Source: Bdellovibrionia bacterium (GTDB taxonomy: Bacteria; Bdellovibrionota; UBA1018). Taken from it: DNA of 25,317 bases. The position numbers are program-made. The stretch spans positions 1 through 25,317 of the forward strand of contig JBJMMA010000134.1 of the NCBI GenBank assembly GCA_045805065.1, read 5' to 3'. Positions 6,001-9,000 of this stretch are shown here, in pieces (positions within the stretch are counted from its first letter, which is position 1; every line of letters begins with the position of its first letter).

Positions 6001-9000
6001 CTCAGGCCGCTTTGTTCACTTCTCGCTCTTCAGCAACAGCAGGTCCATCGACTAGCTCAGCAGAAGTTTGCGTCTTGTTTTGCTGAGGTTCCTGATTTCC
6101 CCGAACCAGAGTTTCAAGCTTCTGGGTTACGTCGGAGAGCTGTATCGCATTGTTACCGAGCTCATTGGAGATCTCGCTGGATCCTGATGCAAGCGTTGCA
6201 TTCTCTTGAGTGACTTCATCGATCTGGCTCAATGCCTTTGCGATTTCTCCCATCGCTTTCGCCTGCTCGCGCGAAGCCACAGCGATTTGCGTGACCGACT
6301 GATGGGCTTCCTGAACCCCAGCGAGAATCGTCGTCAGCGCGTCGCGGGCTTCCTCAGCAGACTTCACACAGTTAGTCGTTTGGGCCTTGGATCGCTCGAT
6401 GGACTGTGAAATGGTTTGGCGCGACTTCTCAACCAGGCTAGCCACTTCTTCCATCGATTGCGCGACGGTTTGCTGAATTTCCTGAGCGGTCTTTCCCGTC
6501 AATTGAGCGAGACGTCCCACTTCCTCAGCCACAATGGCAAAGCCCTTGCCGTGCTCGCCTGCGCGTGCGGCCTCAACAGAGGCATTGAATGAAAGAAGCT
6601 TGGTCTGGAATACAATGTCGTGAATCGCGCGGGTGCGCTCCTCGATCGTAGCGATAACTTTGCTGATTCCGGCAAGCTCCTCATGATTGCGGGTCATGTC
6701 TTTGCTTGTCTTCTCGCTCTCTTCTCCCATCTGCTGGATGACACCCATCAGGCGATCCATCACTACGGCGCCGTTTTCGGCAGCCACGCGTGATTTCGAG
6801 GATAGAGCTTCCGTGGTTTGGGTCGACTCAAGATTTTTTTGGATCGTCGCATTCACCTCTTCCATCGTGGCTGCAGTTTCCTGCAGAGCCGCAGCTTGCT
6901 GGGTTGCCGACGCAGTCAGGCGTTGAGATGACTCCTGAGCCTTTTCAGCCTGCTGGGAGATGGCCTGAACGCGAGCCTTGAGCGCACGTGCGAGCTGCTC
7001 GAGAACACGAACCACGCTGCCCGTGAACCATCCAATGATCAATGACGTCACCAAAGTCACAAAGAGCGTGACCATCACGATGATGCGACGAAGGTGATAC
7101 ACTTCGGCACGAAGCTCATCCTGATTCAGGCTTGCAGCCACATGCCATTCCACTTCCGGGAAATAGCGATAGATTGCCAATTTGTCCTGGGGCTTCTTTG
7201 TCTCAGCATTCAGCCAACGATAATTCATGGAGCCATCAGGGTGATCCATGATCTCTTTGAAAATAAGCTTTCCATCGAGATCCGTCTCGCTCAGCACGTT
7301 CTGACCTTCCTTGGTTGGATGAAGGATCATCGTGCCCTTATTGTCCATGATGTAAAAATAACCCGTATCCAGGATCTTGGTGGTTTTGAGATTTTGCTGG
7401 ATCAAGGTGTAGGAATTGTTCTCGCGGGTCCCGATAAAGAAAGCACCTACAGTGCGCCCGCCTTGAATAATCGGATGATAGGCGGTCACGAACCAGTCGT
7501 TCACGACGAAAGCACGACCCAGATACTCTTTTCCCTCTTGAAGGGTTTTATAGACAGGAGATGTAGGTGGAATGAAAGTTCCTTCGGCACGCGTGCCGTC
7601 GGTTTTCTTGATGCTGGTGGACGCGCGAACAAAGCCTTGCGGGGTCTCAACAAAGAGAGTGACTTCGCTTCCTGACTCTGCCGAGATTCGGTCGACGATG
7701 TCATGATCCGTGACCGGCTTTCCATCAAAGAGAAAATGAGGAACCTTGGCCTTCAACTTCTCGTGAGTGATTTGGTTCTCGATCTCGCGCTCGGCTCCGT
7801 TCGACTCATCGATTGCGAGCTTTGAGGAGTATTTCTTGAGATATTGGTTCAGTACCAGCTTCTGGCGCTCCAGGCTGTCCTGGTAAAGAGCGTGGACCGA
7901 TGCCTCAACCGATCGAAGCTGCATCGTGAGGCTTTCCATGGCCAGCTTCTCGACGATCTGCGAGGCCAGTCCATAGGTGATGGCGCCAGTCAGAGCCATG
8001 CCTCCTAAGAGAAACAGTGAAAATCCCAGAATGAACTTCGATCTCAGTCCTAGTTTTTTCATACGTTAAAATTCTCGGAAGAATTTCATAGTTTCTTAAA
8101 CCTTCCTTCAAACATTCACGGCTCAGACGAGTGCGAATAGAGCCCCAACCCTCAACCGAAACTGCTCAACATCTGTCTAAACATTAGACAGTCTTGGTTG
8201 ATGGTCAGGATTAAATCAGCCGTAGTTTCAGCCTATTAGGAAAGTGACAAAACGCCACCACTTGGTATAAGCCTTGCTCAAATAGGGCTTAGAAATGACC
8301 AGCGCAGGCGAAGCTGGCGCGAGATTATTATGAGCAGTAAGCGGTTTCTAAAATCAAATTCCAGCTGGAGAACGGGAGTGATGTCCGTTCTTCTTCGCTA
8401 TGAGAAACTAGTCATGGTTCTCCTGGCATCCGCTGGACTCACCGCTGTTCTTCAACATATCGAGTTTAATCTTCTGGAAGCAGGCCTTTACGACCTCAGA
8501 GTGAAAGCCTCTTTTCCTTCACGCTCCAGCAAGGACATCGTCCTGGTCACCATGGATGATCAGACCATCAAAACGCTGGACCAGCCTGCCCCCCTATCGC
8601 TTGATACTCACGCGAAATTCATGGAAGCGCTTGCGCGTCTCCATCCTCGTGGCGTGGGTTACCTGATCGACATGAATCAGGTCCGCCAGACCAATACGGA
8701 TCTTTTTCAAGGCGAATGGCCCCAGCGCTTTCTCGATGCCACCCGCCAGCTTGAGCAGAGCGGTACAACGGTTCTTTTCGGAACTCCTTATGATGTAACG
8801 GGTGAAGTAGTCGCGCCTTATCCATTGAGCACTCTTCCCCACGCGCTGGCTTTCATCCACAAGGATGGAACCGTCTTCGCAGAAGACAAAGTGACCCGTC
8901 GCGCGCTCGTGACTTTAAATGACAAACCAACCTTTCATATCGATTTTGCTGAACGCCTGGGCATGATCCCGAGCGGACAAGTCCCTCAGGGAACGTTTTC

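Follow-up and report, generated by a model that had tools for sequence, protein, structure and literature searches.

The window, a stretch of 25,317 nucleotides from a Bdellovibrionia bacterium, includes the 17-bp palindrome TGTCTAA-N3-TTAGACA between a minus-strand chemoreceptor gene and a divergent operon (8330-11928) coding for a CHASE2 sensor kinase, P0002, and a sigma-54 activator, P0001 (Table 1). In a matrix scan the site scored 31 bits, the second-best value in the genome. The preliminary description had counted the kinase/activator operon among the site-bearing promoters, and with both the site and a sigma-54 promoter in front of it, the operon indeed looks like a target of a putative enhancer. 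The chemoreceptor gene is probably not a target because no good sigma-54 motif was found on its side. When the palindrome was searched in the window alone, allowing up to two mismatches, the result was not significant (15 of 100 shuffles reached one match); the evidence for it is genome-wide. The named relatives of the kinase point to uncultured Bdellovibrionota of the UBA1018 type as the group to which the genome belongs.

Table 1. Features of the region around the palindrome and location of the gene for the candidate activator P0003. Positions are those of the window unless genome and contig are given.
Feature	Position	Strand	Remarks
Cache-domain methyl-accepting chemotaxis protein	6002-8062	-	Divergent from the enhancer
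FliA (sigma-28)-type promoter of the chemoreceptor gene, TTAAG-N16-CCGAGA	8073-8099	-	Consensus from PMC3627812
Putative palindromic enhancer (UAS) TGTCTAA-N3-TTAGACA, TGTCTAAACATTAGACA	8174-8190	.	Flanked by conserved C 8173 and G 8191
Predicted sigma-54 -24/-12 promoter, TGGTATAAGCCTTGCT	8263-8278	+	First G 82 nt from the enhancer centre
CHASE2-HisKA-HATPase sensor kinase P0002	8330-10372	+	Start at 8330 or 8381; Pfam; apparent enhancer target
REC-AAA+-HTH sigma-54 activator P0001	10399-11928	+	GAFTGA at 216; second gene of the apparent target operon
P0003, 527-aa one-component activator	G000:C176:17627-19210	-	PocR-like sensor, coiled coil, AAA+ with GSFTGA, Fis-type HTH

In the 4.2-Mb source genome (G000), the exact palindrome TGTCYAA-N3-TTRGACA occurs 13 times, and no exact copy was found with spacers of 0-2 or 4-10 nucleotides. 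Together with 16 further copies that have one mismatch, there are 29 sites, all of which are intergenic according to our own gene calls, while the intergenic fraction of the genome is 0.12. Sites with two mismatches are intergenic in 15 of 26 cases, but this class is partly noise because control spacers yield 1-11 intergenic sites of the same kind. A matrix constructed from the 29 sites extended the core to CTGTCTAA-N3-TTAGACAG. Its top 30 matches were all intergenic, and 42 matches exceeded 14 bits, compared with 1-9 for four control matrices. Thirty-eight intergenic sites score above 14 bits, and 35-40 is a fair estimate of the number of true sites. The preliminary description had reported 13 exact sites, all of them intergenic and none at other spacers, and about 40 promoters sharing the element; the first count was reproduced and the second agrees with the numbers given here.

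The sites are associated with sigma-54 promoters. Of the 38 intergenic sites, 22 have a -24/-12 motif (no more than one mismatch) at a distance of 25-140 nt, whereas among 1,157 control positions with comparable geometry 64 do (p = 4e-17), a stronger association than the one stated previously. Allowing two mismatches, the numbers were 29 of 38 and 141 of 1,157. The start codon is 71-196 nt away from the site in 27 of the 30 targets on the sigma-54 side; the earlier figure was mostly 80-190 nt. The genome contains 18 activator genes and, on C21, an rpoN-like gene of 499 aa that we presume to be rpoN on the strength of its RpoN-box pattern. Distances from the centre of the site to the promoter cluster at 60-63, 73-74, 80-82, and 92-96 nt, which corresponds to strong helical phasing (R = 0.71, best period 10.9; none of 5,000 permutations was as strong). 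The claim that the site precedes kinase orthologues was also upheld: among 45 distinct order-level loci, 21 have a site above 10 bits in the kinase promoter (none with control spacers), and 27 have a sigma-54 motif with at most one mismatch. At these loci the spacing between enhancer and promoter again follows steps of about 10 nt, as strongly in 4 of 3,000 permutations, or in 43 of 3,000 when only unique distances are counted, statistics that come from sequences related to one another. In four other families (f15, f17, f20, and f21), the raw count of sites accompanied by a sigma-54 motif is 25 of 81, and the phasing outside the order is marginal (p about 0.04, uncorrected).

Since the element is palindromic, intergenic, and multi-copy, and G000 does hold REP-like repeats, it could be asked whether it is a REP-like or mobile repeat devoid of a regulatory role. 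This reading is effectively refuted and hardly credible: flanks and spacer vary from copy to copy, the element is kept across the phylum, and it is tied to promoters. A true repeat used as control behaved differently, with identical flanks, no sigma-54 links (0 of 31), and no excess in 200 other genomes. Another alternative is that a conserved non-activator, such as a repressor or an architectural factor, binds the palindrome while other activators fire the sigma-54 promoters. Our survey of regulators covered activators; moreover, 16 of the 38 sites lack a sigma-54 motif when one mismatch is allowed and 9 when two are, and some sites face FliA-type promoters (the one in the window and another on C237). 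We nevertheless hold this alternative to be decidedly improbable. The helical phasing at 50-130 nt fits an activator, the TGT-N11-ACA geometry is typical of sigma-54 activators in the material available from the Desulfovibrio study (PMC4641369), and the sites are single and located upstream of the -24/-12 boxes, not over them. Weak copies at the promoter of P0003, described below, also fit an activator. We infer that the palindrome is an activator-binding site ahead of dozens of secreted-protein genes.

An N-terminal hydrophobic signal was predicted by a crude test in 25 of the 30 sigma-54-side targets, compared with 1,149 of 3,239 genes (p = 1e-7). Most targets in G000 belong to no Pfam family; those that could be named on the sigma-54 side include two SLT proteins, an RNase T2, and an APP1 phosphatase. 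Genes for two PLDs, an S41 peptidase, and a Tad protein adjoin sites without a clear sigma-54 motif. The earlier list of targets (mostly secreted proteins, PLDs, Tad, and SLT genes) stands in that secreted proteins predominate and PLD, SLT, and Tad genes adjoin sites, but for the Tad gene and the two PLD genes no sigma-54 motif was found at the thresholds used. At one locus, on C66, a strong site precedes a perfect sigma-54 promoter, downstream of which lies a hairpin that is stable (z = -7.2), has a loop rich in C, and is likely a small RNA.

Outside the order we examined 81 loci from 12 genomes of families f15, f17, f20, and f21 (three genomes with all their sites, the remaining nine with their best ones); 76 of the loci are intergenic. 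Among the 86 neighbouring proteins scanned, those with a name are for the most part hydrolases that are exported: subtilases, trypsins, S41 and M1 proteases, L,D-transpeptidases, and an M74 murein endopeptidase, in addition to nucleases, an RHS protein, and Bdellovibrio beta-sandwich proteins. No nitrogen-fixation genes were found among the scanned targets. Only two G000 targets, a pilin-like protein and one of unknown function, matched loci of the other families, and for this reason no fixed core of targets can be defined. The enhancer is constant across families while its targets turn over. In genome G179, one site is flanked by fliL and a YkuD-Cds6 gene, an arrangement that appears to resemble the Bd1076/Bd1075 pair. 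Expression of Bd1075 drops on prey entry according to the table in PMC2797640, which is a poor fit with a programme of invasion only.

The preliminary description considered the motif order-wide. Within the order the exact site is indeed present in 76 of 116 genomes (the reversed control in 2), but this range was understated. In a sample of 201 genomes of the phylum, searched with one mismatch and compared with the reversed control, there was an excess in families f1 (194 versus 15), f21 (486 versus 122), f17 (328 versus 57), f15 (177 versus 32), and f20 (168 versus 99). No excess was detected in f22 (13 versus 25), f18 (8 versus 9), f14 (19 versus 24), or f25 (3 versus 13). The motif is phylum-wide in Bdellovibrionota.

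Which activator acts from the palindrome? The product of the second gene of the operon, P0001, had been proposed as the autoregulated cognate. The guess was reasonable because P0001 and the kinase are widespread and the HTH of P0001 barely varies: P0001 was found in 150 of the 201 phylum genomes, and so were matches to the kinase at E<=1e-40, some of which are weaker paralogues. However, the distribution of the motif does not follow that of P0001. Thirteen genomes of f15 have 117 sites compared with 28 for the control, and neither the P0001 HTH nor the kinase was found in them; 7 of the 13 are at least 90% complete. One of these genomes, G117 (93% complete; 11 versus 2 sites), codes for five activators, none of which falls in the P0001 clade. 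Conversely, the site is absent before the kinase in f21 (0 of 18) and f17 (0 of 9) and nearly so in f20 (1 of 16), although the P0001 HTH is nearly unchanged there. These results did not bear out the proposal, and P0001 is probably not the enhancer-binding protein. A de novo scan for intergenic dyads produced two candidates for a motif of its own. TGYGACA-N3-TGTCRCA turned out to be part of a repeat confined to G000 (35 copies versus 0-4 elsewhere), and GTGTC-N6-GACAC is enriched only in the order, with a distribution unlike that of P0001. As no separate motif was found for P0001, P0001 and a second activator, P0003, could share the site.

P0003 is a one-component protein encoded elsewhere in the genome (Table 1). 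It matches PF00158 (4.8e-72) and PF02954 (6e-12), and its AAA+ domain has Walker A/B motifs, a GAFTGA-type loop, and an arginine-finger region, with the sequences GENGTGKE, GSFTGA (278), LFLDEIG (299), and REDLYYR (357); its structure model (pLDDT 83) matches NtrX/FleQ. The sensor, residues 1-175, scores E = 0.069 against the PocR family PF10114, and 18 of 28 orthologues match this family at E<=0.01 (best 3.1e-9). The top matches of the PocR-like domain in the Atlas, at 0.88 and 0.86, have the value of leads. Folded alone from a single sequence, this domain gave a model too poor for a structure search (pLDDT 47), and searches with the full model returned AAA+ proteins only and were uninformative on the sensor. 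A profile search with the domain recovered 114 relatives. The recognition helix is nearly invariant among orthologues, and P0003 is present in 179 of the 201 phylum genomes.

The 78 activators in a quick tree comprised the full set of 18 from G000 and 60 of the 87 detected in a further nine genomes rich in the motif; inventories were complete for G000, G117, G123, and G266. G000 and the nine other genomes are all represented in a single clade only, that of P0003 (support 100). A shared activator of another type, PilR-like or similar to the one encoded on C201, could also be considered. A tree clade that we took to be PilR-like has no member in motif-rich G000, G123, G250, or G266, and a PilR regulon was rejected on this basis. 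The C201-like clade has members in G000, G117, G141, G148, and G250 but is absent from the complete inventories of G123 and G266, which have 16 and 20 sites, respectively. The sections available of PMC6058289 present the sites of PilR as TGT-N11 elements that resemble those of NifA; even so, given these absences, a cognate of either type is very improbable.

P0003 also follows the motif more closely than P0001 does. Among the 168 genomes that are at least 90% complete, 98 have an excess of at least four sites; all 98 have P0003 and 92 have P0001. The genomes of this completeness without an excess include 11 that lack both activators and one that has P0001 only. The latter, G238 (95% complete; 5 versus 6 sites), has the P0001 type and no P0003. 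Family f22, which shows no excess, has P0003 in 0 of 14 genomes, and the three genomes examined there have 11-15 other activators. An excess without P0003 was observed in four genomes that are 73-77% complete. In f14, f18, and f25, P0003 is kept with no genome-wide excess (30 versus 46 for the control), and sites before the P0003 gene itself were found in 7 of 11 cases examined. Co-occurrence alone is weak evidence since P0003 is near-universal, and the discriminating genomes belong mostly to one family, f15, whose members are kin and not independent. It must be weighed together with the points that speak for P0001, namely the genome's second-best site at the sigma-54 promoter of its operon, the retention of this site in just under half of the order orthologues, an HTH near-invariant across the phylum and as conserved as that of P0003, its presence in most motif-rich genomes, and the lack of any other motif found for it. 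The f15 excess, the activators of G117, the case of G238, and the P0001 operons of f21, f17, and most of f20 that have no site go against it, and we regard it as unlikely that P0001 binds the palindrome and autoregulates, either alone or sharing the site with P0003. On this comparative evidence P0003 is a good candidate, and we think it likely that it is the conserved sigma-54 enhancer-binding protein of Bdellovibrionota that acts from the palindrome as its UAS.

The region upstream of the P0003 gene was analyzed in 78 orthologues, after one locus without upstream DNA was dropped. Sites above 8 bits were present within 160 nt in 38 of them. Five control matrices gave such sites at 1-4 of the 78 loci, and the share was 2 of 51 for other activators and 1.9% for the genes of G000. 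These self-sites are weak (median 7.6 bits), and they were nearly lacking in two families (f17, 0 of 6; f20, 1 of 6). None of the 39 orthologues checked had an upstream sigma-54 motif. A FliA-type promoter was found instead in 39 of 78, compared with 223 of 3,164 G000 genes. The -10 box of FliA promoters looks like a half-site and was masked for this reason; 27 of 78 orthologues retained a self-site versus 8 of 223 G000 genes with FliA promoters, so that masking weakened the signal without abolishing it. Degenerate self-sites on a FliA-type promoter are the pattern expected of negative autoregulation.

Neither the motif nor any Bdellovibrio sigma-54 regulon was described in the open-access literature and preprints searched (text, without figures). 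P0003 has the sensor-AAA+-HTH layout of NifA, likewise a one-component protein, and both kinds of site have TGT...ACA half-sites. The NifA site is TGT-N10-ACA, whereas the spacer here is N11. The identification of P0003 as NifA, a database label, was rejected (354.1 bits versus a TIGR01817 cut-off of 528.85). PilR is a two-component regulator of the REC type, unlike P0003, which has a PocR-like sensor and no REC domain and belongs to a different clade. What is available of PMC6058289 describes for PilR of Pseudomonas, Geobacter, and Dichelobacter a TGT-N11 element and a broad sigma-54 regulon of surface and cell-wall genes; for Geobacter, 54 loci are predicted. In Desulfovibrio vulgaris (Kazakov et al. 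2015, PMC4641369), the activator regulons are alike in several respects in the portions available: palindromic upstream sites that include TGT-N9/11/12-ACA groups, activators of the one-component kind, GSFTGA listed among variants with retained activity, and a proposed autoregulation for DVU1949. The sites were compared in their TGT...ACA geometry (PMC4641369). Those regulons comprise 1-4 operons, with a maximum of 12, compared with the estimated 35-40 sites of G000 and up to 35 pattern matches per genome outside it. The regulon that FliA controls in the attack phase of Bdellovibrio bacteriovorus (Karunker et al. 2013, PMC3627812) is a global life-cycle regulon rich in secreted and surface proteins, as far as the available text goes. 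Its consensus precedes the P0003 gene, but that motif is a sigma-28 promoter element while the palindrome is a putative enhancer. For the remaining third of promoters Karunker et al. obtained no motif, their search being limited to -50 to +1; RpoN does not occur in their main text, and they call the switching cascade largely unknown (PMC3627812). FliA was the only global regulator with a DNA motif found in the parts of the Bdellovibrio literature covered.

Orthologues of P0003 exist in cultured predators: NCBI files one (L296) under B. bacteriovorus (WP_050792885.1, 518 aa; one member of its cluster is labelled NifA) and another (L242) under Halobacteriovorax marinus (WP_014245789.1). In strain HD100 the counterpart is likely Bd0156 (1,608 nt, labelled NifA), matched by name and length alone. 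No description of Bd0156 was found in the open-access literature and preprints. In Table S1 of PMC3627812, whose header is partly blank and whose columns we assigned, the RPKM of Bd0156 is 671 for attack phase as opposed to 96 for growth phase; the same source shows expression of rpoN in either phase. For Bd0156, the table in PMC2797640 gives fold-changes on prey entry of 0.59/0.53 (FliA, 0.58/0.54) and in host-independent growth of 0.38/0.32 (FliA, 0.43/0.38). This attack-phase bias, which tracks FliA, fits the FliA-type promoter before the P0003 gene. In the Tn-seq tables available from PMC6561027, rpoN insertions have a predatory fitness of 0.03-0.15, three genes annotated as sigma-54 Fis-family regulators have a fitness above 1, and the NifA-labelled EP01_RS12560 is given as ND in four screens, its tag being absent from part 1 of 3 of the essential list. 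The effect of rpoN on predation could be exerted through activators other than the P0003 type.

The following model would accommodate the observations. The FliA (sigma-28)-type promoter would drive the P0003 gene, so that the protein would be made in attack-phase cells, and P0003 would limit its own synthesis through the weak sites on this promoter. P0003 would be licensed when its PocR-like domain binds a cytoplasmic signal, and its dimers on the enhancer would then form the ATPase ring and bring about the opening of sigma-54 promoters whole helical turns away, at about 50-130 nt. The proteins switched on would be lineage-specific exported proteases, lytic transglycosylases, L,D-transpeptidases, nucleases, and pilin-like and unknown proteins; a small RNA would probably be switched on as well. 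In the order of the source organism, the CHASE2 kinase/activator operon would form a second tier.

A tentative extension of this model, which may well prove wrong, is that P0003/Bd0156 is a phylum-wide switch of the predator life cycle, stocked in attack-phase cells through FliA and fired by a small molecule encountered when the prey is contacted or entered, which would use sigma-54 to turn on the secreted enzymes for opening, remodelling, and digesting the prey, together with the CHASE2 tier and the small RNA. If true, it would explain the inability of RpoN mutants to prey, and P0003 would be the regulator so far missing between the attack programme and the growth programme. The regulon would be unusually large for a sigma-54 activator, larger than any in the parts available of the Desulfovibrio study (PMC4641369). 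The motif permits listing targets in any Bdellovibrionota genome, and since these are largely exported proteins of unassigned function, it can serve as a sieve for candidate predation enzymes. The finding provides a binding motif and a candidate activator in Bdellovibrio and Halobacteriovorax, which are culturable and genetically tractable, and makes P0003 a testable candidate for the regulator of the predators' secreted arsenal.

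A second palindrome, GTGTC-N6-GACAC, was found upstream of secreted-protein genes at 18 intergenic sites of the source genome, four of them adjoining the TGTCYAA-N3-TTRGACA enhancer. It is enriched throughout the UBA1018-type order (20 vs 2 in the source genome, up to 24 vs 1), and the phylum genomes scanned from other orders showed no enrichment. This sequence distribution indicates that GTGTC-N6-GACAC is probably the site of a different, order-specific regulator.

In family f17, the enhancer sites are arranged as tandem pairs 19 nt apart, as would be expected if two dimers bind there cooperatively. 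Many f13, f17, f20, f24 and f27 genomes carry an additional kinase/activator pair, the HTH of which is 60-69% identical to that of P0001, the activator encoded in the window; a paralogue of this kind is absent from the source genome. Only two targets were found common to the source genome and loci from other families, and one of them, a pilin-like secreted protein of unknown function, is an enhancer target in the source genome and one f20 genome (56% identity). On contig C66, 3′ of a small pilin-like gene, an enhancer and a perfect sigma-54 promoter precede a long hairpin. The hairpin is a candidate small RNA of the enhancer regulon. Long non-coding stretches also follow the enhancer sites at C30:4234 and C34:41464.

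The REP-like hairpins of the window are arranged as inverted pairs with a spacing of about 240-260 nt. Their TGYGACA-N3-TGTCRCA pattern has 35 matches in the source genome, and its excess was absent from the 200 other genomes. Two more intergenic dyads, GCGGC-N3-GCCGC and AAAGG-N9-CCTTT, are abundant and look like additional repeat families.

Coordinates of the features described
Feature	Location	Strand	E-value
MATCAP-family (tyrosine carboxypeptidase-like) gene, bacterial	window 12886-14205	minus	4.7e-118
REP-like hairpins containing TGYGACA-N3-TGTCRCA	window 1047-1115, 1253-1311, 5660-5725, 5888-5945		
160-aa pilin-like secreted protein	L064:4311-4793; L262:901-1404		
GTGTC-N6-GACAC, example sites, source genome	C19:9051, C38:7829, C182:3080, C256:7915		
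Enhancer, perfect sigma-54 promoter, long hairpin with C-rich loop	L063:1865-1955 (G000:C66, near 6865-6955)	minus	
f17 tandem enhancer pairs	G261:C33:2055/2074; G183:C57:564/583; G127:C5:11176/11195		

The MATCAP-family gene of the window adjoins a gene for a SurA-type PPIase. FliA-type promoters with at most one mismatch were located upstream of 51 genes of the source genome, many encoding secreted proteins. These promoter sequences suggest that this uncultured order, like Bdellovibrio, has an expanded FliA regulon of the attack phase.
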